A DNA stretch of 64,000 nucleotides, taken from the NCBI GenBank assembly GCA_965214605.1, contig OZ243961.1:553917-617916 (forward strand), read 5' to 3'. Positions within the stretch are counted from its first letter, which is position 1. Each line of letters starts with the position of its first letter. This stretch comes from an uncultured Candidatus Binatia bacterium. Lineage in GTDB: Bacteria > Desulfobacterota > Binatia > Bin18. The position numbers were made by a program, and so were the translations under genes. Positions 11,520 through 59,644 of the stretch are shown here, piece after piece. The notes below the pieces were generated by a model. It saw only the letters and a program-made list of their open reading frames with translations. It was not told where the DNA came from and did not search any database.

Positions 11520-12023
11520 ATCTCCTTTGTGTCTTATCCATAAATTGGGGAATGTGGGCCGTCAAGTGCCGGTCAGACGTCCACGCGAAGCCAACCGGCA
11601 GCGAGATCGCTGACATACCACGCTGTAACGAAGCGCTGGCCAGACCAAGGCTTGCAGCGGAGTGCTCGTCCAGGTTGTGACATACGCCATAAAGGCGATT
11701 GTGACCACCACGGTCCACTCTCAGAGGACACAGCATGGTACAGGCGAGCAGAGAGACCATAGATCGCTGATCGGTGATAGCGCCCAGCACAGGCCCTATA
11801 GCCAGCTCATCCCTACGCCGCACCTGCGGAAGGAGAGGTAGAGGTCGAACACCGGAAAACCGGTCCAGGCAACCACCATAAAGAGAAGAGGTAGGTTGGG
11901 ATCGCTGGAACGTACCAGCAGAACGAGGACGAGGCATCCCACGGTGCGCGACCGCATCCACCATCCGGCGTACGGCTATGCCGAACCTCTTCTCGGCCAC
12001 ACATAACGCCCTTGTCCGCAAGC

Positions 12024-13424
12024 TTAGCGGGGCGGCCGGCACTTCCAGTAGTAGTGGTGCATGGTCGCGCCTTCTTTGCGCCGTCGTAGGCTGAGGACGA
12101 CGCTGTCGCCGACACGCACGTCCTCGGGATCTACGTCGGTCATTTGGCTATACAGACGGCCGCCCCCGTCAAGATCAACCACACTCATAATCGTCGGAGA
12201 ATCTGCAGTGTGGTACAGATGGTCTCGGGTGAAGGTGAAGATATGGCCACTGCGGGACAGTGGGACTTCTTGTAGAGAGTCGTGATTATGGCAGGCAATG
12301 CAAATGCGAGCGATGGGATACTGCTTGGTGCCGCAGCGCGGACACTGCGAGCCGTACAGGCGGACGTTTTGTTTGTCTTCTTTGGCCAAAAAGACGTTCG
12401 ATAGCTCAGGGCCGTCCTGGTGCTCGGCGTAATACGTCCGCATCTTCTTAAAGATCTGGTAGGAAGGGTAGAGGCGCTTCTCACTCAGATGATCGGAGAC
12501 AGACTGAGCGGAAACACGCATTCTCATGTTCTCGGTCGCCCGTAACACGAAACCGTCCGCTCCGTCACCATACCCCAGTAACACCAGACGGTCTCCGGCC
12601 TGAGCGCTCTCCAGAGCGGCGGCCAACAACAAAAACGGTGCGGCACTGCCGCACGCGCCGACCTGGCTGAACAGCGGGTCTTGGATTTGTGCGTCTTGAA
12701 AGCCTAGCTTTTTAGCCGCGCCAATATGTGCCCGCCCGTCTGGGGAGGGCAGAATCAGCTTGGCACAGTCCTGAGCCTGGATATCAAGAGAGTGCAACAA
12801 CCTTGTGCCAACGGCGACGACACTGGCCTGATAGCCCCGTTCAGAGCTAAAGCGCGATGTCTGGGTTTGGATAAAATCGTCGGTATCACGCCGCCATTCG
12901 TCTAGAAAATCGTCCGACCGTGAAGCCGTGCTAAGAATTTCCGCGATCACACCTTCGCGGCCAAGCGTGACCGCACTGCCCGCGTCACCAAACCAGTCTT
13001 CTTCACCTTCACCGGGCTGTCCGTCGCGGACCTCGCCGGCGGCGATCAAAACCTGCGACAGGCGTCCGCTACCAAGAGCGTCTAGGCCAGCGCGGAGGGC
13101 GGTTGTGGCCGAACGCAGACTAGCGCCAAAATCGGCCGTTTCGCATTCCGGCCGCAGATCGCAGGCCGCGGCCAGAAAGCTGGCCGAAGAACGCTGGCGG
13201 AATGGAGCCGAGCTAGAGGCAAAGTACACTCCGTCGATACCGGTCTTGCCGCTGTCCTCAAGACAACGCTGGGCGGCTTCCACACCCAGCGTTAGCGCGT
13301 CCTCATCAAAATAAATTGCTGCACGCTCACCCCGGCCAGAATGACGCGCCCAGGCGTGGCCGACCTGCTCCCGTTCTAAGCGAAAAAAAGGGACGTGGTA
13401 CCCACAGCTGGTAATGCCGATCAT
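12024..13424 (-). CDS. archaeal-type HMG-CoA synthase-like (thiolase-fold) enzyme fused to a C-terminal DUF35 Zn-ribbon/OB-fold domain
   Basis: N-terminus IGITSCGYHVPFFRLEREQVGHAW resembles the archaeal HMGCS family; C-terminal CPRCGTKQYPIARICIACHN Zn-ribbon followed by OB-fold. Confidence 0.65.
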   Translation of the reverse strand: MIGITSCGYHVPFFRLEREQVGHAWARHSGRGERAAIYFDEDALTLGVEAAQRCLEDSGKTGIDGVYFASSSAPFRQRSSASFLAAACDLRPECETADFGASLRSATTALRAGLDALGSGRLSQVLIAAGEVRDGQPGEGEEDWFGDAGSAVTLGREGVIAEILSTASRSDDFLDEWRRDTDDFIQTQTSRFSSERGYQASVVAVGTRLLHSLDIQAQDCAKLILPSPDGRAHIGAAKKLGFQDAQIQDPLFSQVGACGSAAPFLLLAAALESAQAGDRLVLLGYGDGADGFVLRATENMRMRVSAQSVSDHLSEKRLYPSYQIFKKMRTYYAEHQDGPELSNVFLAKEDKQNVRLYGSQCPRCGTKQYPIARICIACHNHDSLQEVPLSRSGHIFTFTRDHLYHTADSPTIMSVVDLDGGGRLYSQMTDVDPEDVRVGDSVVLSLRRRKEGATMHHYYWKCRPPR

Positions 13425-13528
13425 GATCGTGCCTTACGGCGGCGTGCCATATTTAGCCCCCCGTTGGGCTCAGGTCTCAAAAGATATCGGCGCTCTCTTC
13501 CCTCCTCATGGGGAACGCCCCGATTTCT

Positions 13529-13990
13529 TCAGCTCACAGCCGCCTCTTTTTTACGCAGCATACCAGCCCGCCGACAGCGCATAACCACCTCTCCCCGTTG
13601 GTTGGTAGCCCGGTGCTCGAACATCACAACACCCCACTGCGGGCGTGACTTGGATGCGCGCTTTTCCACTACCTCGGTCTCTGCGTACAGCGTATCGCCG
13701 ATAAAGACCGGCTTGGGAAACTTCACCTCTTCGAAACCAAGATTGCCGACCGTCGTGCCCAGGGTGGTATCTCCGACCGACAGGCCAACCGTGAGGCCAA
13801 GGGTAAACAGGCTGTTGACAAGCCGCTGGCCGAACTCGGCCTTCTTGGAAAATTCCTCGTCGAGGTGCAGGGGCTGAGGGTTCATCGTCATGGTCGTAAA
13901 TAGCAGGTTGTCGGTCTCGGTAATTGTTCGTCCCGGCTGGTGGTGGAAGACATCCCCAACGTTGAGTTCCTCAAAATGTTTGCCTGCCAT
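13529..13990 (-). CDS. MaoC-family (R-specific enoyl-CoA) dehydratase
   Basis: hot-dog fold; [15 protein letters not shown]...[23 protein letters not shown]; start set at MAGKHF. Confidence 0.75.
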
Positions 13991-14046
13991 AGGGTCCTCC
14001 TTACCAGATGTGCTGGGCAATGCGGGGTCCGTGCTTGATCTGCACT

Positions 14047-15201
14047 TCAGTGGACGGACAACCGCTTCTGATACCAAATCCTTCCGTCTTTAACCGTCAG
14101 CTGGTTCACGAGCCGCTGCCGACCGATCATATGGTTTTGGTCGGTATCAACGAAATCAAACTCGCCGTCTTCTAAGCGGAACACCGCAATATCGGCGATG
14201 GCCCCGGGCTTAAGCGTCCCGATACGACCCGCCTCACCGAGCACCCGGGCCGGATTCGCCGTGGTGCGGACAATGACGTCCTCCAAGCTCATGCCCAGAT
14301 TCAAGAGCTTGGACATGGTCGTCGGCAGGTCAAACACCGGCCCTCTGGTCGCGCTGCTCAGGGTCAGGTCGGTCGCGATTGTATCGGGATAAAAGCCGGC
14401 ATCCAACACCTGTTTGACAAACGGAAAGGGAAAATGCATACGACCATGGGCGCAGTCAAAGAGAATCCCCTCTTTTTGCGCATCCCAGACTTCTCTCAAA
14501 ATCGCTTTTTTATCGGCCCCCATAATGCCGTGGGTATAGCGATGAAAACAGTGGGTGACAACATCGCCAGGTTTCATGAACGACAGGATTTGCGGAATTG
14601 GCAACAGGGCATCGGTGATATGGACCATCAGCGGTACCTCAGCCATATCGGCTGCCTGGCGGGCTAGGCGCAGCGGCTCGGTCCCTGCAGAATCGGGGAC
14701 AACGTTGTTGCTAAAGCGCAGCTTAACCCCAATGGCGAGGTCCCGATTGGCGCTGATCGTGCGTGCACAGCCCTCAGGGTCGGCATAGGCCATGTGCATG
14801 AGTTCTCCAACCTGAAGATGAATCAAGCCTAAGGCCGAGAGGTGAACAAAGCACCGCAGCCGCACCTGGCTGCGGTCTGCAACCGATTGACGTAGTCCCG
14901 GAAAAGTCGCTGAACCGGCGCTTCCCGCGTCAATAATCGTCGTCACCCCACTTGCCGAGCAGCGCTGATCAGTTGCGCTCCCCATATCATGAGCGTTGAC
15001 AAAAACGTGGGCGTGCAAATCAATCAGGCCGGGACACACTAGCCCGCCGCTGACGTCTCGAACACGCACCGCTTCGGATTCGGGAATATCCGGCTGAACG
15101 GCGGCAATCCTGCCGTTGTGAATCGCGACGTCGGCTTTCCCCCGAAACGGCCAGCCTGGATCAATGACTTGACCGCCTTTGAGTACCAAGTCGTAGGCCA
15201 T
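14047..15201 (-). CDS. amidohydrolase-family metallohydrolase (D-aminoacylase/dihydroorotase-like)
   Basis: [15 protein letters not shown]...[10 protein letters not shown] metal-binding HxH motif; start set at MAYDLV. Confidence 0.7.
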
Positions 15202-15232
15202 AGCGTCCTCTTTTTTCGGTGCTTGCACGCGG

Positions 15233-15943
15233 TTATTTTGCCTGCCAGGTGTTGTGGTGGACAAGCTTGTGGATGGGGATCTTTGGATTGGACGGTTTGC
15301 TAGGTCGCTGGGCAGGATAGCCAATCGTGATCAGGCCAACCGGCCGCACTTGATCGGGCAGGCCCAAGATTTTTGCCACTTCGACCGGGTTATAGGCTCC
15401 CACAAAACAGGCGCCTAAGCCCTGTTCCACAACGCCCAGCAAAATGAGTAACGAGGCAAACGCGGTATCGACCAGACTATAGAAGTTTCCCCGGCTACCA
15501 TAGCGTTTTCCCATGCGCTGTGTGTCGGCACAGGTCGCAATAATCAGCGGAGCGGTCGCCACCGAGGTCTGGCCGAAAGCCGCGGTAGCCAGCTGAGCAC
15601 GCACCTCGGGATCTTGGACAAGGATGAACTCCCAAGGCTGGAGATTGCCCGCACTTGGCGCCCGAACCGCATACTCAAGCAGGCGTTGTACAAGCTCTTC
15701 TGGAACCGGCTCACCCGTGTAGGCCCGAATCATCGCCCGGCGTGTAACAACCGAGGCGAAGGAGGGCGACTCAGCGGATATAGATTCAGCCGCCTCAGCT
15801 TTGGCCTGGGCCAATACAAGCGCGGCCCCGGTGCTTTGGAGCAGCTTGCGACGGGAGACTTTGAGTGGCACTGAAGCGTCCTTCTCGGGAAAACGCGGCT
15901 CGAGACGGCCGCGATACAATCGGCCTATAAGCCCTAGCGCCAC
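15233..15943 (-). CDS. nitroreductase-family flavoprotein with Tat-type signal
   Basis: SRRKLLQSTGAALVLAQAKA twin-arginine motif; nitroreductase fold; 10-bp overlap with qhpB stop. Confidence 0.6.
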   Translation of the reverse strand: MALGLIGRLYRGRLEPRFPEKDASVPLKVSRRKLLQSTGAALVLAQAKAEAAESISAESPSFASVVTRRAMIRAYTGEPVPEELVQRLLEYAVRAPSAGNLQPWEFILVQDPEVRAQLATAAFGQTSVATAPLIIATCADTQRMGKRYGSRGNFYSLVDTAFASLLILLGVVEQGLGACFVGAYNPVEVAKILGLPDQVRPVGLITIGYPAQRPSKPSNPKIPIHKLVHHNTWQAK

Positions 15944-17010
15944 ACAAATCGTAGGACATTTCCCCCACCGGTCTGGGTGGCGCCAAGCTCAATCTTGGTC
16001 AACAGTTCCAGGCTCTCGGCATCAAAAACAGCGATATCGTGCCAGTTGCTGCCGCAGTATATCTTTGTGCCCTGGGGATGGATAAAGGGCATAAAATACG
16101 TATTCGGCAGCGGGCGGCTCTTTTCGATACGACGCGTCTGGAGATCGACCCGCCACAGAGTGTTGTAGGCAAAATAGGCTTTTCTGGTCGTGGGTGACAG
16201 CGCACCGGTCAGCACGTAGGATTCTGGGCTGAAGGGCTGGAGCTCAACCACCTCGACCTCGGGCTCGTCTTGGTTGAGGTCCAAAGAGGCAATGCCGATC
16301 GTGACCTGTCGGGTAATCGTGTCGGTCACAAACGCCCCAAAAGAGATCAAGTGGCCGTGCTCTTGATACGGGTTGCCCAAGGGCAGCCCGTCAGTCCGCC
16401 CGACCCCGGTAATATTCCGATTCAGCAGCGGTAGGCTATCGACCTGCTCCCCGGTTTCGGTATCGTACACAAAGATATCCTGGCCAACACTGAAGACGTA
16501 CAGCTGTTTGCCGTCTTTGGACGAGGCCAGCGACATCACCTGGCGGGGAGCAGGAAAGGTGCGCAGGGTTTGCTGGGTGTTCAGATCAATGACTCGGATA
16601 CGGTTGTCGAGCGCCGTGTAACTGCCCGGCTCTTTTTTGAGCGGCATCTCGTGAATGAACAGCCGGTCGCCCTGAGCACTGGCGTCAATCGCCATTGTGC
16701 GGACTAGCTCGGTATCGCTAGAGAGCGAGAAGCTCGTGACCTGCTTGCCCTCATCAAGGTCGACCATGGCGACGCTCTGTGACAAATTGTTCACCACATA
16801 GGCGTACTGCGGATGAGCAGGATTGGGCGCGATGTTGAGGGCCGGACCACGGCCTTCGAGGGCAATATTTTGCACCACCTCATCGGTCTCAGTATCAATC
16901 ACAACCAGATTGTTGGGATGGACTGAGGCTAACAGATACCAGTTTGCCTGGGCCATATGGGGAAGGCCGACAAGTATGAGGCACAGCAGCAAAGCCTGAC
17001 AAAAGCGCAT
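15934..17010 (-). CDS. qhpB: quinohemoprotein amine dehydrogenase beta subunit (beta-propeller)
   Basis: signal peptide MRFCQALLLCLILVGLPHMAQA; repeated propeller blades; position directly after the gamma subunit in the qhpADCB order. Confidence 0.65.
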   Translation of the reverse strand: MRFCQALLLCLILVGLPHMAQANWYLLASVHPNNLVVIDTETDEVVQNIALEGRGPALNIAPNPAHPQYAYVVNNLSQSVAMVDLDEGKQVTSFSLSSDTELVRTMAIDASAQGDRLFIHEMPLKKEPGSYTALDNRIRVIDLNTQQTLRTFPAPRQVMSLASSKDGKQLYVFSVGQDIFVYDTETGEQVDSLPLLNRNITGVGRTDGLPLGNPYQEHGHLISFGAFVTDTITRQVTIGIASLDLNQDEPEVEVVELQPFSPESYVLTGALSPTTRKAYFAYNTLWRVDLQTRRIEKSRPLPNTYFMPFIHPQGTKIYCGSNWHDIAVFDAESLELLTKIELGATQTGGGNVLRFVWR

Positions 17011-17051
17011 CCAATTCCTTCTTCGCACGACCTCGCCCTCACCCGACCGGT

Positions 17052-17381
17052 CTAGTCGATTTTCGGAAAGACGACTTCCAGGCTCCTCCAGTCTTCCTGG
17101 GTCGAGCCTGAACAGGCTTTGGCCCACTCCGGGGTATTCTGCAAACTATCCGGCACCTGGGCCGGCCACCAACACACATTGGCACAGCTCAGCAGGTCAG
17201 CCTCAACCGGGGCACACATACTGCTTGTCCCGCCCCAGGGATTGGCCTCCCAGCCGGGGTTAAAGATCGTCGTGCAGCCGACCGGCTGGTTCATCCCAAT
17301 AACATCGTCCTGCTCTTGGGCTTGGACCGCCTCAACCCGTTCAGCCTTTTGGTTGCGTGGCTTAAGGTGTTTCATTGGCAT
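17052..17381 (-). CDS. qhpC: quinohemoprotein amine dehydrogenase gamma subunit (Cys/Trp-rich crosslinked subunit precursor)
   Basis: 109 aa; leader then Cys/Trp-rich core (GCTTIF...SMCAPVEADLLSCANVCWWP); sandwiched between the radical-SAM maturase and the beta subunit. Confidence 0.65.
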   Translation of the reverse strand: MPMKHLKPRNQKAERVEAVQAQEQDDVIGMNQPVGCTTIFNPGWEANPWGGTSSMCAPVEADLLSCANVCWWPAQVPDSLQNTPEWAKACSGSTQEDWRSLEVVFPKID

Positions 17382-17430
17382 CTCCTTACGCTTGCCCCTA
17401 GGCCTTTCCGTTCAGCTTTCAACATTCTCT

Positions 17431-18891
17431 TCACGTCAGCTCCTTAGGCGCGTCTCCCCTCCCCCGCAGCACGTAGTGCTCTACAAAGCCGGGGGTCTTG
17501 CGCTCCAACTCCATATAGACCCTGATGCCGTGCTCTGTCCAGGCTCTCAGAAAGTCACAGTAGTGCAGGTTGGGGTGTAAGGCGTCGCCAAACTGGGTCA
17601 TGGCCTCATGATAACACCCGCCACCACACAGCCCACGCACCCAGCAGGTCTGACACACCGTTTTGTTGCCCAGGTGGGCCTTGTTCACAAAGGCATTCAG
17701 CCGGTCATAGGCCAGCCCGTCTCTCACGTTGCCGTGTTTATGCTCCTCGCTGCCGGGGAAACGATGGCACAGATAGACGTCGCCATTGCCGTCCACATCC
17801 AGCAGTCCCAGCCCAGCACCACACGGGAAAAACTTGTTAGTCCCGACATGGATATCGGTCAACAGGGTGCTCAGATTAGCGAAACCAGTATAGCGGCCCT
17901 GTATGGCTCGCTCGACGTATAGGCCGCTGAGCTGTCGAAAACCGGCCAACACCTCGTGCAAGTCTGCCGGCTCTAAACCGTAGTCCGTGCCATTGGTGGA
18001 CGTAACCGGAGAAAACCCGACCTCAAAAAATCCCAAGCCAGTCAGGTGTTCGTACGTCCGCATAATATCGATCGCGTCTTTCGTCACAGTGACCCGCGCC
18101 ACCACCGGGCGGGCAGTATAGCGCTCGAACAGACGCTCCAAGCGGGGCGCCAGCACCTGGTAGGAGCCTTTGCGTTGTCCCGTGGCGGTCACAAATGAGC
18201 GCCGTTTGTCGTGCAAATCCGGCGGGCCATCAATACTGATTGTGATACCAAAGCGATAATCCTGAAAAAAATCAATGACACCATCGGTCAGCAACGTGCC
18301 GTTGGTGGTAATAGAAAAATCGACCCGTTTGTCTTCGGCCCGGGCTTTTTGCTCGGCATAGGTCACGACTTGACGCATCAGTTTGAAGTTCAGTAGGGCC
18401 TCGCCACCAAAAAAAATCAGGTTGACATCCCGACTCTGGCCCGACTTTTGGAACAGAAAATCGACGCTAGCCTGAGCCGTCGACCAGTTCATCTGGACCG
18501 GTGTGGGGCCGTATTTGGCCTCGTCCGGCTCATAACAGTAGGTACAGTGCAGGTTACATTTATTGGCAACATTGATGACCACCGAGCTGACCGGAAACCG
18601 TTCAACATCTAGCTGGGGAATCGATAGTGGTGAGGTCGGCGGATCGGTCTCAAAGATGTCCAAGCGGATAAACTCCCGGACCGTTTCGGCAATCTCCTCA
18701 GCCGAAAACCGGTCGGCCAGCGCAGCGATCAGCTGCTCAAGGCTGCACGCCGGTCGGACCTGGCCGTAGTGCAGGACTGCCTCACACACCGCATCCATCT
18801 CAAACAGAGCCATGCTCTTGGCCGCAACCAAGACGTCCCCCGACTCCGTAGCGAGGGGATAGGCGTTTTCGGGATGGAATCGCAGCTGCAT
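17431..18891 (-). CDS. qhpD: radical SAM/SPASM maturase for QHNDH gamma subunit
   Basis: CNLHCTYCY radical-SAM CxxxCxxC motif; C-terminal SPASM cysteine clusters (CQTCWVRGLCGGGCYHE); start set at MQLRFHPENAY. Confidence 0.8.
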   Translation of the reverse strand: MQLRFHPENAYPLATESGDVLVAAKSMALFEMDAVCEAVLHYGQVRPACSLEQLIAALADRFSAEEIAETVREFIRLDIFETDPPTSPLSIPQLDVERFPVSSVVINVANKCNLHCTYCYEPDEAKYGPTPVQMNWSTAQASVDFLFQKSGQSRDVNLIFFGGEALLNFKLMRQVVTYAEQKARAEDKRVDFSITTNGTLLTDGVIDFFQDYRFGITISIDGPPDLHDKRRSFVTATGQRKGSYQVLAPRLERLFERYTARPVVARVTVTKDAIDIMRTYEHLTGLGFFEVGFSPVTSTNGTDYGLEPADLHEVLAGFRQLSGLYVERAIQGRYTGFANLSTLLTDIHVGTNKFFPCGAGLGLLDVDGNGDVYLCHRFPGSEEHKHGNVRDGLAYDRLNAFVNKAHLGNKTVCQTCWVRGLCGGGCYHEAMTQFGDALHPNLHYCDFLRAWTEHGIRVYMELERKTPGFVEHYVLRGRGDAPKELT

Positions 18892-18902
18892 ACTATCCGT
18901 CC

Positions 18903-20525
18903 TTACTCGATTGGCGGAAAGAGAAACCGGGGCGGCATGACGAGTAAATGCGCCCGTGCGCCAATTGAGCGTTTTGCGTTGGTGGGCTGATACCAGGCTT
19001 CGACCCACACATCGCCGACGTTACCCTCCAACATGCGCCGATCCGGGTTCGGACCGTCCAAGGCCGGGGTGAACAGCCCGGCTTGATCAAGCGTCCCAAC
19101 AAACTTGACATCGTCGTCATTATTGCGCTTGACGTATTCTTCCAGCTGCCAGGTGACCGGCGTGATGCGGCCTAACTTCACATCATCGGCCGTGCCTTTT
19201 TTGCCATCGGCCCCGTTGGTGTAGCCGTCCACCTCAAACTGCTGGAAAATCTTTGGCGCCCGCCCCCCACCCGGACGGGCAAAGCCATGTTCCGGGGAGA
19301 GCCGAATATAGTCGACCGTCTTATACACCGCCAGCCGGAGTTTGCTGCTCACTCCTCGAACATCGACATCCCTCCGGCCCGGTTCGGCCTGCGGGTCGAC
19401 TGTCAGCTCAAGCACCAGGGTATCATCGGCCTGCTGACTCACAGATTGGACCGACACTCCAGCGCCCAAAGACACATCTTCGGCCCGCAGCCCTGGGGGC
19501 AGCTTGATGCCGAACAGCTTCAGCTTTGGCGCGCTGCCAGCCTGTAAGGCGGTCGGGATGCTCGTCAGCAACCGGGCCGGTCCAAGACTCCGATACCACG
19601 TCTCGGTCAAGGCCAGATCACCATAGGCGGTTAGCAGGCGCCGCCCCTTGATCCGTGTCCCGTCTTCGCTGGCAAAAAATATTTCTCTGTGGCTCGTCTG
19701 CGCCTCGCCTTCGCCCAGCTGAGCGAGACCGCGCCACTGAAAGCCGGTGTAGACAATCGCTGTCGTTCGGCCCGACAGCGTCAGACCGTTCGAGAGTTCA
19801 TAGCGAAAGCTCCCGCTGTACCGATCATCCTCTCCGGCTGTCAGCGTTAAACGACCCACATAAGCCCCGCCCCCGCCAGCATCGTGACCGACCACTTTCC
19901 ACTCACCAGAATAGTCAGCCTTGGGTCGGGATTGCCAGTTGGTCCACGCGTCTGTGCGAAAAGGCAGAGCCTTGACCAAATAGGGCACGGCCTGCTGCTT
20001 GGCGTAATCGTACCAAAAGGTCCGGAGCAGCCCGGCCGAGACTGTTTCGTTTTCGATATTCGGCAGCAGGGCCAGTTTCGCGTCAATCAAGCGCTCCCAC
20101 TCTTGGGCGGTTCGGCCTTGGAGGGCGGTTCGGGCGTAGGAGTGGCACTGCACACAGCCGGCTTGCAGAGCCGCTGGCACGTCCTGGCTGGTAACAGTAT
20201 GATCACGGGCCAGAATAGGCTGAAAAGGCGCGACCTCGGCTGGCGCCAGGCCATACAGATCACTCAGGTATTTGACCAGGGTACGGGCTTCGCCAGCTTG
20301 GAGTTCGACCTGGTGAGTCAACACCATGCGCGAGATGGTCATCTCCCAGCCTTCCGGGGTTTTACGCTGGAACTCAATCGCGTCAAATTTACCGTCGGAT
20401 TGGCGTGGGACATGACAGCCCGAGCAGCGGTCTTCCAAAATCGTCCGTGCAGCGTCCGCTTGACCCCAAGCCTGCAAGGGGGCCAAGAGCAGACAGCACA
20501 TGGTAATGAGGAGCGGTATTTTCAT
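18903..20525 (-). CDS. qhpA: quinohemoprotein amine dehydrogenase alpha subunit (di-haem cytochrome c)
   Basis: signal peptide MKIPLLITMCCLLLAPLQAWG; two CxxCH haem motifs (CSGCHV, CVQCHS); ~540 aa. Confidence 0.75.
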   Translation of the reverse strand: MKIPLLITMCCLLLAPLQAWGQADAARTILEDRCSGCHVPRQSDGKFDAIEFQRKTPEGWEMTISRMVLTHQVELQAGEARTLVKYLSDLYGLAPAEVAPFQPILARDHTVTSQDVPAALQAGCVQCHSYARTALQGRTAQEWERLIDAKLALLPNIENETVSAGLLRTFWYDYAKQQAVPYLVKALPFRTDAWTNWQSRPKADYSGEWKVVGHDAGGGGAYVGRLTLTAGEDDRYSGSFRYELSNGLTLSGRTTAIVYTGFQWRGLAQLGEGEAQTSHREIFFASEDGTRIKGRRLLTAYGDLALTETWYRSLGPARLLTSIPTALQAGSAPKLKLFGIKLPPGLRAEDVSLGAGVSVQSVSQQADDTLVLELTVDPQAEPGRRDVDVRGVSSKLRLAVYKTVDYIRLSPEHGFARPGGGRAPKIFQQFEVDGYTNGADGKKGTADDVKLGRITPVTWQLEEYVKRNNDDDVKFVGTLDQAGLFTPALDGPNPDRRMLEGNVGDVWVEAWYQPTNAKRSIGARAHLLVMPPRFLFPPIE

Positions 20526-20634
20526 GTCGTGAGTCTCTTTGTCACAGTTCGGACTGGTAATCTTACACCCAGCGGCCGAGCTTTGAAAGACTCTAAGACA
20601 AGGGGGGAGCAACGCGTCTTGCCGCCGCTCCGGC

Positions 20635-21390
20635 TTGTTGCTAGGACAGAAGCGACACGACGAGAAGGCGATGGGCGCAGTGGATCACAAACCTGACCTC
20701 AGCCAGGCCACCGGAGCGGGTGTTCGCGTTGCCCTGATCGACAGTGGTATTAACGCTACACACTCCCATGTGGGGTCAGTTGCCGGTGGAGTGGGCTTTT
20801 GGATAGCCGACGACGGAACGGTCCAGGAAAACGATGCCTACCCCGACCAACTTGGCCATGGGACTGCTCTGGCCGGGATTGTACGGGCCAAAGCTCCTCA
20901 GGTTGAGCTGTACGCGGTCAAGATCTTCACCCAGCGGCTTGGCGCATCCATTAGGCTGCTCGAAGCCGGCCTAGGCTGGGCCATTACCCAAAAGATCAAG
21001 ATTATTAATCTGAGCCTAGGCACCAATAATCCGCAGCATCGGGAACGGCTGAGCTCGCTCCTTGGGCTGGCTCGGGCCGCAGGATCCATCCTGGTCGCTG
21101 CCTCTCCACCAGGGCGAACCGACGTGTTGCCGGCCGCGCTGCCAGGGGTAATTGGAGTGGCCGGAGACGAACACTGCGGCTGGAACGACTATCGTTACAC
21201 AAACGACGACCCGATTCCTTTTCGTGCCCACTCCCAGCCTCGTCCGCTGCCTGGCTTACCCCAGGAGCGCAACTTCCAGGGCCATAGCTTTGCCTCCGCC
21301 CATGTTTCGGCTAGGCTGGCTTTATTCGCTCAGACCCGTCCACAGCTCAGCCCGGAGGAGGCCCGCCAGTTCTTAACGCCCAAGGGCTGA
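20635..21390 (+). CDS. qhpE: small subtilisin-like serine protease (QhpE-type)
   Basis: S8 catalytic triad blocks ALIDSGI / GHGTALAG / GHSFASAHVS; ~250 aa. Confidence 0.7.
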   Translation: MLLGQKRHDEKAMGAVDHKPDLSQATGAGVRVALIDSGINATHSHVGSVAGGVGFWIADDGTVQENDAYPDQLGHGTALAGIVRAKAPQVELYAVKIFTQRLGASIRLLEAGLGWAITQKIKIINLSLGTNNPQHRERLSSLLGLARAAGSILVAASPPGRTDVLPAALPGVIGVAGDEHCGWNDYRYTNDDPIPFRAHSQPRPLPGLPQERNFQGHSFASAHVSARLALFAQTRPQLSPEEARQFLTPKG

Positions 21391-21407
21391 GCCCAGACCA
21401 CACCCGC

Positions 21408-23159
21408 TTAGCCATCCGCTTGCAGACCTTCCTCTCGCAGGGTTGTTCGGGTTTGACTCGGCAGGGCCGCCACGTCCGTATAGCGGCCTTTCCACCTCAC
21501 CCGTCCGCGGTCCAAAACGAGCACCGGCTCACCCCGGTGTAAGGAGGATAGACGATGGGTGATACAGATGAGGGTGCGGTCTGACATAAACGCCTCTAAG
21601 GTCTCCCGTACCTCGGCCTCAGCGCTTACATCAAGACCGGACAGAGCTTCGTCCAGAACGAGCACCGTTGGCCGTTTGAGTACCGCCCGGGCCAGACCGA
21701 TGCGCTGTCTTTGTCCGGCCGACAGTCGAGTTCCACGCTCACCAACCGCAGTCTGGTAGCCGTCGGGCAGGGAGACAATGAACTCGTGTAGGCCGAGCAT
21801 AGTCGCGGCATCAACCACGTCTTTCTCCGATGCCTCGGGAGTAGCGTAACGCAAATTGTCTAGCAGCGAAGCATTAAATAACACTGGCTCGTGGTCAACC
21901 ACCAGAATATGTTTGCGCAGCCAGGAGACCTCACACGCCGACAGCGGCTGGCCGTCGAGCAGGATGGTCCCAGCCTGCGGCTCGTATAAGCGCACCAGCA
22001 GGTCGGCCAGGGTCGATTTACCGCTCCCGCTCGGCCCCAGCAGGGTGAGGCGTCCACCGGCTGGGATATGAAAACTGACCTGGTCTAAGACCGGCTCAGA
22101 CAGATTGTAGGCAAACGAGACCCTTCGAAACTCGACCTCTCCCCGCAGCCCGGCGAGCCGCTTGCCGTGTCCAAGCCGCTCGACCTGGTCGACATCCAAG
22201 AACTCAAAAATCCGATCAATCGACACCCCGGTCCGTTCAATCCGTAGATATAAATCCATTAACATCTGGAGCGGACTAAAGGCCCGAGTTTGGTAGGCCG
22301 AGAAGGCGACCAGCCCGCCGATACTCAGCTGCCCATCAATCACCAGGTAGCCGCCATATAAGGTGGTCAACGCACCGCCGAGAAACGTGGTAGCGGTCGA
22401 GGCACTGCTGGCAGCATAGCCCAGCATTTCGTAGCGCGTCACCATACTCACAAATTGTCTACCTAGTGCGCCCAACCGCCCGAGCTGCACCTGCTCGACC
22501 CCGAACAGTTTGATAAAGCGTACCGCGGACAGCGATTCGATCAGAAAGGAAGAGAGCCGGGCGTTCAGCTCCCGCACTCGCCGCGTCTCATCGACTAGCC
22601 GGGGGCGAACCTTGTTGACGCCGTACAGCTGTAGCGGCACAACTAGCAGGGCGACCACACACAGCTTCCAGTTCAGCCACACCAAAAAGCCCATGGTTGC
22701 GATCAGGACAAACACGTTCGACACAAAAGTAAAGGCCGCGTCGGTCAGCACCGCCTGGACTTCGGCAATGTCGGTGTTGAGCCGCGACAGCAGGTCACCG
22801 ACCCGATTATGGGTATGAAAACGCAGCGACAGCGCCTGGAGATGGGCAAACACATGCTGACGTAGGGAGAACAGAATATGGGCGGTTATTTGGGTGTAAT
22901 AGTAGCGGTTACAAGCCCCGATCACATAGCCGGCGGCCGTCACCAAGACCATCACTCCGCTCAACACAAACAGCAAGTGCAGATTCTTGGCTAGCAGCAC
23001 GTCGTCAATCAGAATCTTGGTAAAAATTGGCCACAGCAGACCTAGAACAGTTCCAAACAGAGACAGTCCAAAGACCATAATGAGACGCCGGACAAACGGC
23101 GTGACAAAGGGCAGCAGACGGCGGAAGCGTGATAGGGAAGTGACGACGGACGGTCTCAT
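21408..23159 (-). CDS. qhpF: ABC transporter permease/ATP-binding fusion (exporter type, QhpF-like)
   Basis: 6-TM N-domain; Walker A GPSGSGKST, signature LSAGQRQRIGLARA, Walker B LVLDEALSGLD. Confidence 0.8.
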   Translation of the reverse strand: MRPSVVTSLSRFRRLLPFVTPFVRRLIMVFGLSLFGTVLGLLWPIFTKILIDDVLLAKNLHLLFVLSGVMVLVTAAGYVIGACNRYYYTQITAHILFSLRQHVFAHLQALSLRFHTHNRVGDLLSRLNTDIAEVQAVLTDAAFTFVSNVFVLIATMGFLVWLNWKLCVVALLVVPLQLYGVNKVRPRLVDETRRVRELNARLSSFLIESLSAVRFIKLFGVEQVQLGRLGALGRQFVSMVTRYEMLGYAASSASTATTFLGGALTTLYGGYLVIDGQLSIGGLVAFSAYQTRAFSPLQMLMDLYLRIERTGVSIDRIFEFLDVDQVERLGHGKRLAGLRGEVEFRRVSFAYNLSEPVLDQVSFHIPAGGRLTLLGPSGSGKSTLADLLVRLYEPQAGTILLDGQPLSACEVSWLRKHILVVDHEPVLFNASLLDNLRYATPEASEKDVVDAATMLGLHEFIVSLPDGYQTAVGERGTRLSAGQRQRIGLARAVLKRPTVLVLDEALSGLDVSAEAEVRETLEAFMSDRTLICITHRLSSLHRGEPVLVLDRGRVRWKGRYTDVAALPSQTRTTLREEGLQADG

Positions 23160-23289
23160 AGGCGATCCAGCGCTGGACTACGGGGCATATCCGCCCGTCC
23201 TCGCCTCTGGTAGGATCGGGGGGCGCTTGCCCTGTGGCTTTTCTTAGCCGATCGTAGGCCAGTCTACCAGGGGAAGAGACCTTAAATAG

Positions 23290-24834
23290 GTGCGAGCCAT
23301 GGCTCAAACGGAGGAGTTTGCTGGGCTGCCGACGCACAGCGATGTTATCGTGGCCGGCGGCGGACCGGCCGGAGCGACGATCGCCCGCCTGTTATCGGGC
23401 TATGGCCTGCGGGTTGTGGTGCTGGAAAGACACACGTTGCCCCGTTATCAGATCGGCGAATCGCTTACCCCGCGTATTCTGCCCATTTTTGACTTTCTCA
23501 ACATTCGTGCCGAGGTTGAGCGGGCCGGCTTTTTGCCCATTGCCGGCCACACGGTGTGCTGGGGGGAGGCTCAGCCACGCACGACGTATTACAGCCCGGA
23601 CCATAGCCGGCGCGGCTTGCAGGTCTGGCGAGCGGATTTTGATGTCCTGCTCCTAGATCAGGCCCGGCAGGCCGGGGTGCAGGTCTTTGAAGGCCAGGCG
23701 GTTGAGGCGGTCAGCCTGGCCCAGGACAGCGCCGCGGTGCAGGTGCGGACCGCGTCCCAACACCGCATCATGGCAGACTTCTTTATTGACGCGACCGGTC
23801 GCAGCGGGCTGCTGGCACGCCAAGGCTTACGCCGGCGTAATCGTCGCTTTCAGACCCTGGCCCTGACCGCCTATTGGCAAAACGTGGCCGAGCCCGCAGG
23901 CATTGATCGCGGCAACACGCTGATTGAAGCCTACGCCAACGGCATGGTGTGGTCTCTAGCCTTGCATACTGGGCTGAGGAACGTCACGCTGCTGGTCGAC
24001 TGGCGGGCGGGGTCTGACATCCGACGGACTAGCGTGGCCGATTGCTACTACGCGGAGCTTGGGAAAGCCCCCTACATCTCCGGCCTGTTGGCAGGGGCCC
24101 AGATTGCCACCCCACCCCGTGCCACCGACGCCACCCTGTACACCGCGACGCAGTTTGGTGACCCTCGCTTTTTACTCGTGGGAGATGCCGGGCTGTTTAT
24201 CGATCCGCTGTCCTCTGAAGGTGTCCACAAAGCCATGGCCTCAGCCATGACCGGGGCGGTGGTGGCCAACACTCTTCTTCGGCGACCGGCCATGCGGTCC
24301 CATGCGCTCAGCTTTTACGAACGGCGTCAGCGCCAAACCTATATCTCGCACTACCATCAGTCGCTCGCCTATTATCGGCAGGAACAACGCTGGCCCAAGT
24401 CTGCCTTTTGGCGCGCCCGAGCGAGCGAAACTCCCGCCCAGGAGTTCTCGTCCCCTCCACCTGTCTCCCGTCCCCCCGCCTCCCGCAAACTGTCGCACCT
24501 CCAATGGGCACCCGGCGTGTCTGTCCAGCAGCGACCAACAATCGCGGGGACCTATGTCAGCCTGCAGGACACGGTTATCGCCCCCCACTATCCCGATGGC
24601 GTCCGCTTTCTGGATCGGTTATGCCTGCCGACCGTACTCAAAATCATGGCCCAACAGCCCGCTATCGGCGATATTATCTCCGCCTATCTGCACCATCCGG
24701 ATGGACGGGGCTGTCCGCCCGAAGCGGTTCGACAGGGTTTAGCCCGCTGCTTTCAGGAAGGGATTGTGGTCGAGGCGGGGCACGCGGCGGTTCAGCGGGC
24801 TTCGGTCGATGCTTCGGCATTCACCAAACGATAA
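23290..24834 (+). CDS. qhpG: FAD-dependent monooxygenase (QhpG-type)
   Basis: N-terminal FAD dinucleotide motif IVAGGGPAGATIARLL...VLERH; GD motif LVGDAGLFIDPLSSEG. Confidence 0.7.
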   Translation: MRAMAQTEEFAGLPTHSDVIVAGGGPAGATIARLLSGYGLRVVVLERHTLPRYQIGESLTPRILPIFDFLNIRAEVERAGFLPIAGHTVCWGEAQPRTTYYSPDHSRRGLQVWRADFDVLLLDQARQAGVQVFEGQAVEAVSLAQDSAAVQVRTASQHRIMADFFIDATGRSGLLARQGLRRRNRRFQTLALTAYWQNVAEPAGIDRGNTLIEAYANGMVWSLALHTGLRNVTLLVDWRAGSDIRRTSVADCYYAELGKAPYISGLLAGAQIATPPRATDATLYTATQFGDPRFLLVGDAGLFIDPLSSEGVHKAMASAMTGAVVANTLLRRPAMRSHALSFYERRQRQTYISHYHQSLAYYRQEQRWPKSAFWRARASETPAQEFSSPPPVSRPPASRKLSHLQWAPGVSVQQRPTIAGTYVSLQDTVIAPHYPDGVRFLDRLCLPTVLKIMAQQPAIGDIISAYLHHPDGRGCPPEAVRQGLARCFQEGIVVEAGHAAVQRASVDASAFTKR

Positions 24835-25352
24835 TCGCGGACCAAATCGTCCAACAGCACGCCCAAGGCGTCTTCAACGCTGTGGACAAAACTGTTCCGC
24901 AAGGTCAGGGCTAGTTTTCCCTCGGCCCAGGTTGGCGCCAGCATCGTCATCTGCTCGGTCCGGGTCAGGCGGACAATCTGGCGGACTTCCACATCTAGAC
25001 AGTAGGCCAATACCCTGCTCGAATGCTCAACACTGTGCAGTGACACGACCAGCACGGTCGGAAAATCACCTACCTGAAAAGCCGCCCGACGCAGCCGCTT
25101 GTTGGCGACGCCTCGGAGTCGGACACGGTCCATGCCCAGGGCGCGGGCCGTCCGACTCACCGAGCCGATCTCAAGCTGAAAGCCCCTCACGCCATACAGG
25201 GTTGTTGCGTCCGCCCCGGCGTTCAGTCCCAGGGCCGGGGACAGCACCAGCAGCAGGCTTAGTCCCAGACCCAGCACCCACAGGCCCGCCCGGTCAGGAT
25301 GGGCGGGTTCCGAGTGCGCTTCCTCAGATCGCTTCGCTCCACCCTTTTCCAT
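24792..25352 (-). CDS. hypothetical membrane-anchored protein (weak MlaD/MCE-like resemblance)
   Basis: N-terminal TM helix then ~140 aa soluble domain; no confident family assignment. Confidence 0.3.
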   Translation of the reverse strand: MEKGGAKRSEEAHSEPAHPDRAGLWVLGLGLSLLLVLSPALGLNAGADATTLYGVRGFQLEIGSVSRTARALGMDRVRLRGVANKRLRRAAFQVGDFPTVLVVSLHSVEHSSRVLAYCLDVEVRQIVRLTRTEQMTMLAPTWAEGKLALTLRNSFVHSVEDALGVLLDDLVRDYRLVNAEASTEAR

Positions 25353-25373
25353 ACTCGGCCCTCGGCCACGTCC

Positions 25374-25823
25374 TCATCTCTGTCCCCCCTGTTCCTTCTC
25401 ATACTGCAGTCGGACCGCCTTCTCAATCAAACCGAACAGCCGGTCTTGTTTTTCAGCGGAGAGAGAATGGATCGATTTTTGGATTAATTCAGCGCTCTGC
25501 TGCAAATCGCGCGCGCTCGCCTCAGCCCCTTTTTGGGAGAGAACGACAAAGGCATGGCGCTCGTGTTCGGGCAACCCCTGCAGGGCCTCGTCGTACAAAC
25601 GAGCCATCTCTTGTTGTTCGGGTGGGGACAGCAGCTGGCGGCCGAGGCGGGACAGCTCAATGCCCCGGCGGGCGGCGGGCACGCCGGGTTCTTCCAGGAT
25701 CTTGCGCCAGCCCTCTCTGGGGACCGGGCGAGAGTTCCAGGCAAAAATTATCAAGACGCTCGCCACGGCCACAAAAGCCAACACTAACCAAGAGCCGCGT
25801 TTGGATGCAGACGTGCCTGCCAT
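25374..25823 (-). CDS. hypothetical membrane-anchored protein
   Basis: single N-terminal TM (WLVLAFVAVASVLIIFAW) followed by helical soluble region. Confidence 0.35.
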   Translation of the reverse strand: MAGTSASKRGSWLVLAFVAVASVLIIFAWNSRPVPREGWRKILEEPGVPAARRGIELSRLGRQLLSPPEQQEMARLYDEALQGLPEHERHAFVVLSQKGAEASARDLQQSAELIQKSIHSLSAEKQDRLFGLIEKAVRLQYEKEQGGQR

Positions 25824-25903
25824 GACTGTTCATTAAAGGACTTTCAGCCGACCGACAAGGGCGGCTGGCCGTTCCCGAACACCCAGGCTATGCTCTCAAC
25901 ACC

Positions 25904-26524
25904 ATGACCAACCACAATGCCGATCAGCCTATTGCGCTGCCCAAGTTGCTCGGACGGGTTGGTATTTTAGGCGGGACAGAGCAGGACAAGACAAATCTGT
26001 GCCTCGCTCTGGCCCACCAGCACGCCCAGCAACACCGTCCGGTTGTATGTGTCGATGCCCGACGGTACAGGGCCACGGAAATCCAGTTTCGCCTCCTGAT
26101 GCGAGACAAGGCTTGCTATCTTCCCCTCGCCTCTCCAACCCAGCTGCCTCAAGAGGTGCTACGCAGCGTTCTGGGCGCGGTTGCTCAAGGCTTGCGACAC
26201 GGACAGCCCCCTCCCTCCCCCGCCCTCATCCTGATCGATGGTGTAGACGCCGGGGACGGCTGGGAGCGCAGCCTGGCTTTTGTTCTCAGGGCCGGAGCAA
26301 TTGTGGTGTCGTTTCTGAACTCGGCCCTAAAGGCCACCCTTGGTCGCTATGACACGCTCCTTGTCCTGCGCACAGAAGCAGAAGCTGAGGCGGTCAGCCG
26401 GGCGGTAGGTCGCAAAGTGAGCCCAGAGGCAATTGTCAGCCTGCCGTCGGGCCAGGCGTGGCTGATCCATTTGACGCGGGCCTATCGGGTCAGGCTGCCG
26501 GCCGGGCTGATGGACGAAGCCTGA
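25904..26524 (+). CDS. hypothetical protein
   Basis: 206 aa ORF with codon usage like neighbours; degenerate P-loop-like GILGGTEQDKT. Confidence 0.35.
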   Translation: MTNHNADQPIALPKLLGRVGILGGTEQDKTNLCLALAHQHAQQHRPVVCVDARRYRATEIQFRLLMRDKACYLPLASPTQLPQEVLRSVLGAVAQGLRHGQPPPSPALILIDGVDAGDGWERSLAFVLRAGAIVVSFLNSALKATLGRYDTLLVLRTEAEAEAVSRAVGRKVSPEAIVSLPSGQAWLIHLTRAYRVRLPAGLMDEA

Positions 26525-26593
26525 ACCGGGGCCTTTTCCGTTGACAAGGGTGCGCAGAGCAGGGAATAATTCTGAGGGGCAGGGAGCGAGCAT

Positions 26594-27577
26594 ATGCGCA
26601 TTGTCATACTCGGAGCAGGCGGTGTGGGTTCAGTTATCGGCGGCTATTTGGCCCGTAACGGGGCCGATGTCATTATGCTTGCCCGGCCGGGCCATGCGGC
26701 GGCGGTGCAACAGCACGGCTTGCAGGTCAGCGGCCTCGTCAACTTTCGGACTCCGGTCGCCAGCTTTGCCCAGGCCAAGCATATTCAGGAAGCCGATATC
26801 CTTCTCATTACGGTGAAAACCAAGGATATGCAGTCGGCCCTCGCCGGGGTTGCCCATATGCAGATTGGTGGAGCTGCCTCGCTCCAAAACGGCATGATCA
26901 AAAACGACCAGATTGCCCAGGTGTTCGGTCAGGAAAAAGTCATTGGAGCAACCACCATGCTTGGAGCGGCTCTGCGCCGAGACGGTGAGGTCGAATACAC
27001 CCTGGACGGTATCACCTTTTTTGGTGAACTCGACGGGCGCCTCTCAGACCGGGTCAACACGATTGTCCGGGCTTTTGTGGACGCCGAGCTTAAAGCCGGC
27101 GGAGTCACCGACATCATTGCCGTTGAGTGGACCAAACAAGCCTTTCAGAATCCGTTCGCCACGATTTCAGCCATGACCCGCCTGCCCATGCATCGGGTGT
27201 GGGCCAGCCCACAGCTGGCGACGCTGTCGGTCCACATGTTTCGCGAGGTTGCCGCGATTGCCAAGGCCAAGGACGTTGTCCTGTCCGAACAGCCGAGCTG
27301 GAGCCTGTTTAACCTTGAGGTCATGTGTCACGCTCCGTTTGACGAGGCCGTCAAACGGCTGGTCGAGGTCGGCAGGGGGATTGAGGCCGGCGGCCGGACC
27401 CGCATTATTCCGTCCATGCTCCAAGATGTCCGGGCCGGCAAAAAAACCGAGATTGATGAAACCGTCGGCTATGTGTACCAAGAAGGCCGGCGGCTCGGCA
27501 TCCCGGTCCCCTACACCGAGTTCGCCTATCGCAGCGTCAAGGCGATCGAAGAGAATTTTGACGCCCAGGTCGGCTGA
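26594..27577 (+). CDS. panE: 2-dehydropantoate 2-reductase
   Basis: MRIVILGAGGVGSVIGGYLARNGADV Rossmann N-terminus; ApbA/PanE C-domain. Confidence 0.8.
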   Translation: MRIVILGAGGVGSVIGGYLARNGADVIMLARPGHAAAVQQHGLQVSGLVNFRTPVASFAQAKHIQEADILLITVKTKDMQSALAGVAHMQIGGAASLQNGMIKNDQIAQVFGQEKVIGATTMLGAALRRDGEVEYTLDGITFFGELDGRLSDRVNTIVRAFVDAELKAGGVTDIIAVEWTKQAFQNPFATISAMTRLPMHRVWASPQLATLSVHMFREVAAIAKAKDVVLSEQPSWSLFNLEVMCHAPFDEAVKRLVEVGRGIEAGGRTRIIPSMLQDVRAGKKTEIDETVGYVYQEGRRLGIPVPYTEFAYRSVKAIEENFDAQVG

Positions 27578-27583
27578 GACGCT

Positions 27584-57734: not shown

Positions 57735-57841
57735 GCCACCATCGTTCCTATTCTCTTCCAGGCCCAAGGACTTATCATCCATACCTCAACCTGGAAGACG
57801 TCCCCGCCTCCCCGGACGCCCTTCAAAGAGGGGAGGCATCA

Positions 57842-58897: not shown

Positions 58898-58958
58898 ATA
58901 TGTCCTCAGTAAGAAAATCGAAAAATCATTGTAATATAAATATTTATCTGGTATACCT

Positions 58959-59623
58959 CCAGTTCTGAAGGGGAATTAGAGGCCGAAAAATATGAGTTCT
59001 GAAGGGGAATTAGAGGGTGTGGAGCATGACGCAATCCAGTTCTGAAGGGGAATTAGAGGCTGAAATACGGGCGTTCCTCCAGTTCTGAAGGGGAATTAGA
59101 GGTTCTCAACAGCATGAGGAGTCCAGTTCTGAAGGGGAATTAGAGGTTCTCAACAGCATGAGGAGTCCAGTTCTGAAGGGGAATTAGAGGTTCTCAACAG
59201 CATGAGGAGTCCAGTTCTGAAGGGGAATTAGAGGTTCTCAACAGCATGAGGAGTCCAGTTCTGAAGGGGAATTAGAGGTTCTCAACAGCATGAGGAGTCC
59301 AGTTCTGAAGGGGAATTAGAGGTTCTCAACAGCATGAGGAGTCCAGTTCTGAAGGGGAATTAGAGGTTCTCAACAGCATGAGGAGTCCAGTTCTGAAGGG
59401 GAATTAGAGGTTCTCAACAGCATGAGGAGTCCAGTTCTGAAGGGGAATTAGAGGTTCTCAACAGCATGAGGAGTCCAGCAGGGGAATTAGAGGTTCTCAA
59501 CAGCATGAGGAGTCCAGTTCTGAAGGGGAATTAGAGGCACGCGCATGACGCACCCCCCAGTTCTGAAGGGGAATTAGAGGATGGAAGGCTTCGGGCTGCC
59601 CAGTTCTGAAGGGGAATTAGAGG
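58959..59623 (+). CRISPR. CRISPR array, 16 repeats of 24 nt (CCAGTTCTGAAGGGGAATTAGAGG) with 18-20 nt spacers; AT-rich leader at 58898..58958
   Basis: period 43-44 bp; 6 distinct spacers, one present in 10 tandem copies; second repeat lacks 5' CCA; one repeat is truncated (59475..59493). Confidence 0.85.
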
Positions 59624-59644
59624 CAGGGAGGGAGGGCTGGAATC

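Follow-up and report, generated by a model that had tools for sequence, protein, structure and literature searches.

A predicted quinohemoprotein amine dehydrogenase gene cluster and its cofactor-maturation genes in a Candidatus Binatia genome

Quinohemoprotein amine dehydrogenase (QHNDH) is a textbook case of a protein-derived cofactor assembled through chemistry like that of peptides made by the ribosome and modified post-translationally (RiPPs). The DNA analysed here, a window of 64,000 nucleotides from a Candidatus Binatia genome (GenBank assembly GCA_965214605.1, contig OZ243961.1, positions 553,917 to 617,916), contains seven genes that very probably encode a functional enzyme of this type (EC 1.4.9.1) together with the complete system for maturing its cofactor. 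An earlier note on this DNA had proposed a complete QHNDH biogenesis cluster, and both profile searches and structure-sequence comparisons uphold its gene assignments, with caveats for QhpB and QhpF. The list of open reading frames (ORFs), read over window positions 13000-28000, contains exactly the seven that the note had described, with the same strands and coordinates. In a scan of the NCBIfam profile library, the cluster proteins gave E-values of 1e-39 to 1e-166, far beyond chance, and five of the seven (QhpA, QhpD, QhpC, QhpE and QhpG) passed the curated equivalog cut-offs. All seven genes are uninterrupted, and the cofactor and catalytic motifs are intact in each of the proteins.

The 109-residue protein that the earlier note had taken for the gamma subunit, rich in Cys and Trp (5 and 6 residues, respectively), scores 131.9 bits against the NCBIfam QH_gamma model (cut-off 50) and also matches the Pfam gamma domain. 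Its matches in the PDB are 1JJU_C (2e-25) and 1JMX_G (5e-24), both ungapped through the cross-link core. Mature numbering equals the residue number in the window protein minus 29, and on this scale C7, E16, C27, D33, C37, C41, W43 and D49 are all kept (window residues 36, 45, 56, 62, 66, 70, 72 and 78). As far as the presence of residues can tell, the protein thus retains the cross-link pairs Cys7-Glu16, Cys27-Asp33 and Cys41-Asp49, as well as the Cys37/Trp43 pair of the cysteine tryptophylquinone (CTQ) cofactor. These eight residues, including the catalytic Asp33, are invariant in an alignment of 11 sequences from Paracoccus, Pseudomonas and Binatia, and the leader residues of an MKHL..N.KA motif are invariant in the same alignment. 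Aligning the small subunit to known gamma subunits was the check that the earlier note had suggested, and all cross-link positions turned out to be conserved. The qhpC gene is hence predicted to encode the gamma-subunit precursor, composed of a leader of ~27-29 residues and an 80-residue mature peptide with the CTQ site.

The two larger subunits can be recognized in a similar manner. QhpA, described in the earlier note as a di-haem cytochrome c with a signal peptide, carries a Sec signal peptide and two CxxCH haem motifs (CSGCH at 63 and CVQCH at 153), matches four Pfam QHNDH alpha domains and scores 434.5 bits against QH_alpha (cut-off 274). Its PDB matches are limited to QHNDH alpha chains (1JMX_A, 1.5e-78; 1JJU_A, 1.3e-64), and qhpA is predicted to encode the alpha subunit, a Sec-exported di-haem cytochrome c with four QHNDH domains. 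For QhpB, the top NCBIfam match is QH_beta (E 6.4e-52), covering profile positions 3-325 of 338, and the next family follows at 4e-9. The top PDB matches are likewise the QHNDH beta chains 1JJU_B (2e-33) and 1JMX_B (6e-29), with the next entry at 4e-8, at least 20 orders of magnitude behind. The gene lies directly after qhpC, as in known operons, and its product has a Sec signal; the signal cleavage sites of both QhpA and QhpB agree with the mature N-termini of the crystallised subunits. QhpB is therefore best read as a divergent QHNDH beta subunit, of a type with a seven-bladed propeller, and not as an unrelated propeller, the grouping that the earlier note had named as counting against its reading. 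MauB was considered as another identity for the propeller and rejected, as the MauB model gave no match.

Four further proteins correspond to the maturation factors of known systems. QhpD, the radical S-adenosylmethionine (SAM)/SPASM enzyme of the earlier note, scores 552 bits against the NCBIfam quino_hemo_SAM model (cut-off 453) and is 39-41% identical to annotated peaB/qhpD proteins of Paracoccus and Pseudomonas. It contains the CX3CX2C motif CNLHCTYC and seven C-terminal SPASM cysteines (396, 414, 452, 455, 461, 465 and 484). The qhpD product is predicted to be the radical SAM/SPASM enzyme responsible for the three Cys-to-Asp/Glu thioethers of QhpC. Models of peptide maturases, PapB and SCIFF among them, match it as well, with E-values of 1e-60 to 1e-86, and a leader-bearing peptide combined with a protease and an exporter resembles the content of RiPP clusters. 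One could therefore read the locus as a natural-product system in which a radical SAM/SPASM enzyme like those of ranthipeptides or sactipeptides would act with a protease and an exporter to make a secreted Cys-rich peptide. We give this reading almost no credence, since all peptide-maturase matches of QhpD fall below their cut-offs whereas quino_hemo_SAM lies above its own, the peptide is a full-length QH_gamma protein with the CTQ Trp/Cys pair and the catalytic Asp, and full-length alpha and beta subunits flank its gene.

QhpE, the small subtilisin-like protease, passes its model (QH_SP/QhpE, NF049966) narrowly, at 170.8 bits against a cut-off of 165. The Asp, His and Ser motifs of the triad are present (D36SG, H75GT and GHS218FA), and the protein is 35% identical to the qhp-linked S8 peptidase of Paracoccus pantotrophus; together these features point to a small subtilisin-like leader peptidase. 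QhpF matches Pfam ABC_membrane and ABC_tran, with Walker A and LSAGQ motifs present, and is a half-size ATP-binding cassette (ABC) exporter consisting of a transmembrane domain and a nucleotide-binding domain with no C39 peptidase domain. It lacks a family-specific model and matches generic ABC exporter models only, but over 543 residues it shares 38% identity with the qhp-linked exporter of Pseudomonas nitroreducens, against 29% for that of Paracoccus pantotrophus, and its gene is syntenic with qhpE and qhpG across Binatia. By family, identity and context, it is provisionally assigned as the putative exporter of the processed gamma subunit.

The flavin-dependent protein required the most careful comparison. 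The earlier note had called it an FAD monooxygenase corresponding to qhpG, and it indeed scores 284.2 bits against the NCBIfam QhpG model (NF049967, cut-off 240), with the flavin motif GGGPAG (GxGxxG) present. A search of the PDB with the single sequence nevertheless ranks the halogenase CmlS (169 bits) above Paracoccus QhpG (7CTQ, 81 bits). CmlS is also the closest fold to Paracoccus QhpG in the structure paper (PMC7876137). A halogenase was rejected as an identity for this protein: the position of the catalytic halogenase lysine (CmlS K71) is occupied by Ile, the WxWxIP motif is degenerate, and the CmlS model is matched at 206 bits against a cut-off of 900, whereas the QhpG model is passed and the C-terminal QhpG domain is present. 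This small C-terminal domain aligns with 7CTQ, in an alignment whose profile included Paracoccus QhpG and is thus not fully independent. Mutagenesis of the Paracoccus enzyme has singled out five residues that matter, E42, R47, R70, W183 and R314 (PMC7876137), and three of them (E42, R47 and W183) are kept in the window protein. The qhpG product is predicted to be an FAD-dependent peptidyl-tryptophan dihydroxylase.

With these assignments, a mechanism can be outlined from the characterised Paracoccus and Pseudomonas systems, its support at this locus being the conservation of residues and motifs; the functions of QhpD, QhpE, QhpF and QhpG follow Oozeki et al. 2021 (PMC7876137). QhpC would be made in the cytoplasm with its leader of ~27-29 residues, and there QhpD would introduce the three thioethers Cys7-Glu16, Cys27-Asp33 and Cys41-Asp49. 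QhpG would dihydroxylate Trp43, QhpE would cut off the leader, and QhpF would export the peptide. In the periplasm, QhpC would join the Sec-exported QhpA with its two c haems and the QhpB propeller, and the Cys37-Trp43 quinone (CTQ) would be completed. The mature enzyme is expected to oxidise primary amines to the aldehyde and ammonia, with electrons passing from CTQ to the haems and on to a soluble acceptor.

Several points weigh against this interpretation. Each function is assigned by homology. QhpB reaches 176.7 bits against QH_beta, below the curated cut-off of 223.2; the orthology of QhpF rests on 29-38% identity plus context; and two surface arginines of QhpG give way to other residues (His for R70, Ser for R314). 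Among the window ORFs scanned there was no AraC/helix-turn-helix regulator of the qhpR type, which is an accessory and not a defining feature, no aldehyde dehydrogenase, and no candidate cytochrome c or cupredoxin acceptor, a scan for CxxCH having returned QhpA only.

The distribution of the cluster speaks to whether it is maintained. A QhpC scan of species-representative genomes, confined to close relatives, yielded 48 loci, most of them titled Candidatus Binatia or Binatota and the remainder bearing older or evidently wrong bin labels (Deltaproteobacteria, 'uncultured Enterobacteriaceae', 'Klebsiella pneumoniae'). The nearest QhpC proteins are 91-93% identical to that of the window, and tblastn of the window proteins onto all loci finds the arrangement G< F> E< A> D> C> B> repeated down to ~50% identity. 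An intact cluster at 50-93% amino acid identity in ~45 Binatia loci implies purifying selection. In one close relative (L003, 8473-9934), qhpD is split into ORFs of 203 and 261 aa, through a frameshift (pseudogene) or an assembly error. This split gene, along with the failure to identify a regulator near the cluster, would fit a metagenome-assembled genome (MAG) in which the cluster persists as a decaying or silent remnant. Such a remnant is very improbable here, as the seven genes of the window are unbroken with their motifs intact and their orthologues are conserved across ~45 loci.

The loci labelled Enterobacteriaceae or Klebsiella (L013, L015, L029, L030, L038, L046, L051 and L052) are MAGs that carry Binatia-type qhp genes with 70-77% QhpC identity and the same synteny; their titles are evidently wrong. 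Many Binatia genomes contain a second qhpA-qhpC-qhpB set, in tandem or elsewhere, that is devoid of qhpD, qhpE, qhpF and qhpG (L005-L007, L016-L022, L025-L027, L032-L037, L044, L047, L049 and L050). Where the gene calls of tandem sets were read (L005-L007), C and B are separated by a DUF4412-like gene. Genomes with such second sets may have several QHNDH isoenzymes that depend on a single maturation set. A second structural set was also sought in the window and was not found there.

Two features set the Binatia clusters apart and deserve separate treatment, namely an additional cysteine in the gamma subunit and an additional gene behind qhpB. Binatia gamma subunits contain a fifth Cys (window residue 90, window 17112-17114) in the motif A/G-C-S-G-x-x-x-E-D-W, and this residue is absent from the crystallised gamma subunits of Paracoccus and Pseudomonas. 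Among 1.84 billion cluster representatives, 130 members of the QhpC family were recovered; many of those from outside Binatia also have the fifth Cys, and a few lineages add a sixth near the C-terminus (LC[FY]VPD). An acidic residue follows the fifth Cys at +6/+7. Since the known thioethers are spaced at +6 to +9, a fourth cross-link is conceivable. A sizeable subfamily of gamma subunits carries a fifth cysteine.

The additional gene encodes a nitroreductase-family flavin mononucleotide (FMN) protein (Pfam Nitroreductase, 2.6e-30), whose start is fixed by a 100% identical database protein of 212 aa. The N-terminus reads SRRKLLQ-STGAALVLAQAKA-EA, a twin-arginine motif and a hydrophobic stretch followed by AKA; this N-terminus (VPLKVSRRKLLQSTGAALVLAQAKA-EA) resembles a twin-arginine translocation (Tat) signal at the level of the motif, and [ST]RRxxLQ with the hydrophobic stretch is conserved in nearly all of ~48 orthologues. 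No TAT model was matched in the NCBIfam and Pfam scans. The closest solved relatives are generic NADH oxidase/nitroreductase proteins and also albonoursin synthase (8UC3, 7e-19), which oxidises peptides. The gene follows qhpB in every one of the 47 Binatia clusters that carry maturation genes (those with qhpD) and have room downstream, in none of the 21 secondary A-C-B sets, and in none of four proteobacterial clusters. A tblastn search of plasmids with the protein returned core-domain homologues only (at most 34% identity), and a literature search for QHNDH combined with nitroreductase found nothing.

It may be that this flavoprotein forms an eighth component of a Binatia-type system that performs the same chemistry, and that the fifth Cys might be cross-linked as well. 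The flavoprotein could then act in the periplasm as an oxidase that finishes CTQ, by oxidising 6,7-dihydroxy-Trp and closing the Cys37-Trp43 link, or alternatively serve the enzyme as a redox partner or an electron sink. Its presence in 47 of 47 maturation clusters and 0 of 21 duplicated sets is the distribution of a maturation factor and not of a structural partner, and the gene stays by qhpB where the other downstream genes (amidohydrolase, MaoC and thiolase-like) are displaced or absent (L017, L019, L046 and L048). The conserved twin-arginine motif makes a periplasmic location probable, peptide-oxidising enzymes of the nitroreductase fold exist, as albonoursin synthase exemplifies, and the acidic residue beyond the fifth Cys lies inside the thioether spacing range. 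NAD(P)H is unavailable in the periplasm; at this probable location, a role in oxidation or electron transfer is thus more plausible than that of an NAD(P)H-dependent reductase. In addition, the last CTQ-forming step has no assigned enzyme in the literature (PMC7876137).

These arguments are countered by others. All of the loci belong to one lineage with generally conserved synteny, so that adjacency may simply be inherited and the argument from synteny is weakened. Proteobacterial systems mature CTQ without a nitroreductase gene, and the only distant fifth-Cys homologue with readable context (L060) lies in a different neighbourhood, where no gene of the nitroreductase family is called downstream. 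Support for the Tat signal is at the level of the motif, proteins that do not have the fifth Cys still conserve the Asp of the DW motif, and the sixth Cys of some lineages suggests a disulfide instead. On balance, an extended system of this kind is unlikely, though well short of negligible. The same low expectation applies to a Binatia variant of QHNDH in which the eighth component occurs once per maturation set and QhpD makes a fourth thioether from the fifth Cys to the Glu/Asp at +6/+7. Both the fifth Cys and the Tat flavoprotein count as leads, not as findings; as a strictly co-located and probably periplasmic protein, the flavoprotein is a concrete candidate for the last CTQ step or for electron transfer.

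The layout of the locus is summarized in Table 1. The mechanical ORFs extend too far in the 5' direction at qhpA, qhpD, qhpC, qhpB and qhpE, and revised starts were derived from the gene lengths called in relatives (541-542 aa for qhpA, 358 aa for qhpB) together with the mature N-termini in the PDB alignments. With these starts, the apparent overlaps between qhpC and qhpB and between qhpD and qhpA vanish.

Table 1. Genes and intergenic regions of the qhp locus in window coordinates, with revised starts where these were derived.
Feature	Position	Strand	Length and remarks
nitroreductase-family gene	15233..15871	-	same strand as qhpB, 62 nt downstream
qhpB ORF	15934-17127	-	397 aa; likely start 17010 (15934..17010)
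qhpC ORF	17052-17381	-	109 aa; probable start M3 at 17375
qhpD ORF	17431-19008	-	525 aa; likely start 18891 (17431..18891)
qhpA ORF	18903-20612	-	569 aa; likely start 20525 (18903..20525)
divergent qhpA/qhpE intergenic region	20526..20670		~145 nt, from inferred gene starts
qhpE ORF	20635-21390	+	251 aa; likely start 20671 (20671..21390)
qhpF ORF	21408-23159	-	583 aa
divergent qhpF/qhpG intergenic region	23160..23289		130 nt
qhpG ORF	23290-24834	+	514 aa

The A and E genes are divergent, E and F converge with their stops 17 nt apart, and F and G are again divergent. This alternating arrangement of E, F and G was correctly described in the earlier note; it is no novelty, as variation in the order and strand of qhp genes has been published by Oozeki et al. 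(PMC7876137), and mixed strands of E, F and G are therefore not new. The qhpA/qhpE intergenic region is presumed to be a control region. A promoter/terminator scan of 11500-26700 did not rise above the shuffled background (6 versus 4.8 expected; 20 versus 14.1), so that operon boundaries could not be drawn from it, and a search of the whole window against Rfam gave zero matches at gathering thresholds.

On the qhpG side, three genes that have no family match adjoin the cluster (window 24792-26524). Two encode membrane-anchored proteins of 186 and 149 aa on the minus strand and converge on qhpG, and the third, on the plus strand, encodes a protein of 206 aa. The genes for the 149-aa and 206-aa proteins keep their synteny with qhpG across Binatia, at 40-90% identity, and the 186-aa protein has a counterpart in the relative with the split qhpD. 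In the closest relatives (L001, L002 and L012), ~3 kb separate qhpG from qhpF, and two genes are called in this interval in L001 and L002. On the other side, qhpB is usually followed in relatives by the nitroreductase and then by amidohydrolase, MaoC-hydratase and thiolase-like/DUF35 genes. In the window, an amidohydrolase, a MaoC-type hydratase and thiolase-like/DUF35 (ChsH2 OB-fold) genes lie downstream on the strand of the nitroreductase (12024-15201); they are kept in this place in most relatives and displaced at times. Their products have no signal peptides and are thus expected to be cytoplasmic.

Elsewhere in the window, two genes for periplasmic thiol oxidoreductases, a DsbA-like gene with a SurA-N-like region (29207-30238) and a VKOR-DsbA fusion (31405-32610), lie within ~7 kb of the cluster, and several genes for luciferase-like monooxygenases, thiolases, enoyl-CoA hydratases and acyl-CoA dehydrogenases are also present. 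Positions 53490-59640 resemble a type V CRISPR-Cas locus. There, a 1414-aa ORF (53490-57734, plus strand) has as its sole Pfam match a Cas12f1-like TNB zinc ribbon at the C-terminus, cas1 occupies 57842-58897 on the minus strand, and a CRISPR array at 58958-59640 has a repeat of ~25 nt (TCCAGTTCTGAAGGGGAATTAGAGG) with unusually short spacers of ~18-19 nt, nine consecutive units of which share one spacer.

A further copy of QHNDH changes nothing fundamental, and curated models would annotate it automatically. The cluster is ordinary apart from its host lineage and the constant company of a gene for a flavoprotein predicted to be exported. QHNDH occurs widely, and often in duplicate, across the uncultured phylum Binatota; the physiology described for this phylum, methylotrophy and alkane degradation, omits the enzyme. 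A literature search for Binatota combined with quinohemoprotein or amine dehydrogenase found no paper linking the two, so that the oxidation of primary amines may have been overlooked as a trait of this globally distributed lineage.

Compared with the known qhp systems of Paracoccus denitrificans and Pseudomonas putida (1JJU, 1PBY, 1JMX and 1JMZ; QhpG, 7CTQ), candidates for all seven components are found here as well, with the caveats given for QhpB and QhpF. The shared features are the A-D-C-B core, the two haem c sites, identical cross-link and CTQ residues in the gamma subunit, and a gamma precursor with a leader of ~28 residues and no Sec signal. The radical SAM enzyme of SPASM type, the small S8 protease and the FAD dihydroxylase also have their counterparts, as does, provisionally, the ABC exporter. 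The order A-D-C-B, which the earlier note had likened to that of Paracoccus and Pseudomonas, is the same in four annotated proteobacterial clusters, all on plasmids: Paracoccus pantotrophus (G< A D C B E F >, followed by genes for an AraC regulator and an aldehyde dehydrogenase), Pseudomonas nitroreducens (F G A D C B E >), Leisingera (G A D C B F E >, followed by an aldehyde dehydrogenase gene and preceded upstream by an AraC gene) and Novosphingobium (A D C B F E >). While the core is constant across these four, the positions of E, F and G shift. The Binatia cluster differs in its host, which is not a member of the Pseudomonadota, in protein identities of 24-49%, and in a beta subunit below the curated cut-off. 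Its E, F and G genes lie upstream on alternating strands, neither an AraC-type qhpR, present in the Paracoccus and Leisingera clusters, nor an aldehyde dehydrogenase gene is adjacent, a Tat nitroreductase gene is added after qhpB, and in the gamma subunit the fifth Cys is accompanied by an insertion of one residue ahead of the DW motif.

Other systems share parts of this chemistry. A mau-type methylamine dehydrogenase, with a tryptophan tryptophylquinone (TTQ) cofactor, has been reported in Binatota genomes and is the sole amine dehydrogenase discussed there (PMC8262859). Like QHNDH, it is a periplasmic tryptophylquinone amine dehydrogenase that pairs a propeller subunit with a small cross-linked cofactor subunit. 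In the mau system, however, the di-haem protein MauG makes TTQ in the periplasm and disulfides stabilise the small subunit, whereas the cofactor genes here are those of QhpD, QhpE, QhpF and QhpG; models for MauA, MauB and MauG gave zero matches in the profile scans. The oxidases LodA and GoxA also contain CTQ, and their partners LodB and GoxB belong to the flavoprotein superfamily of QhpG, which their models match at 161 and 113 bits, below the 400-bit cut-offs. LodA and GoxA each consist of one large protein and lack a radical SAM enzyme, a protease, an exporter and a haem subunit. Finally, the ranthipeptide and sactipeptide maturases (PapB, SCIFF ScfB and CteB) resemble QhpD in forming thioethers by radical SAM/SPASM chemistry on a leader-bearing, Cys-rich peptide, and the PapB model scores 290 bits against QhpD (cut-off 340), but the predicted product of the Binatia cluster is the subunit of an enzyme and not a secreted peptide.

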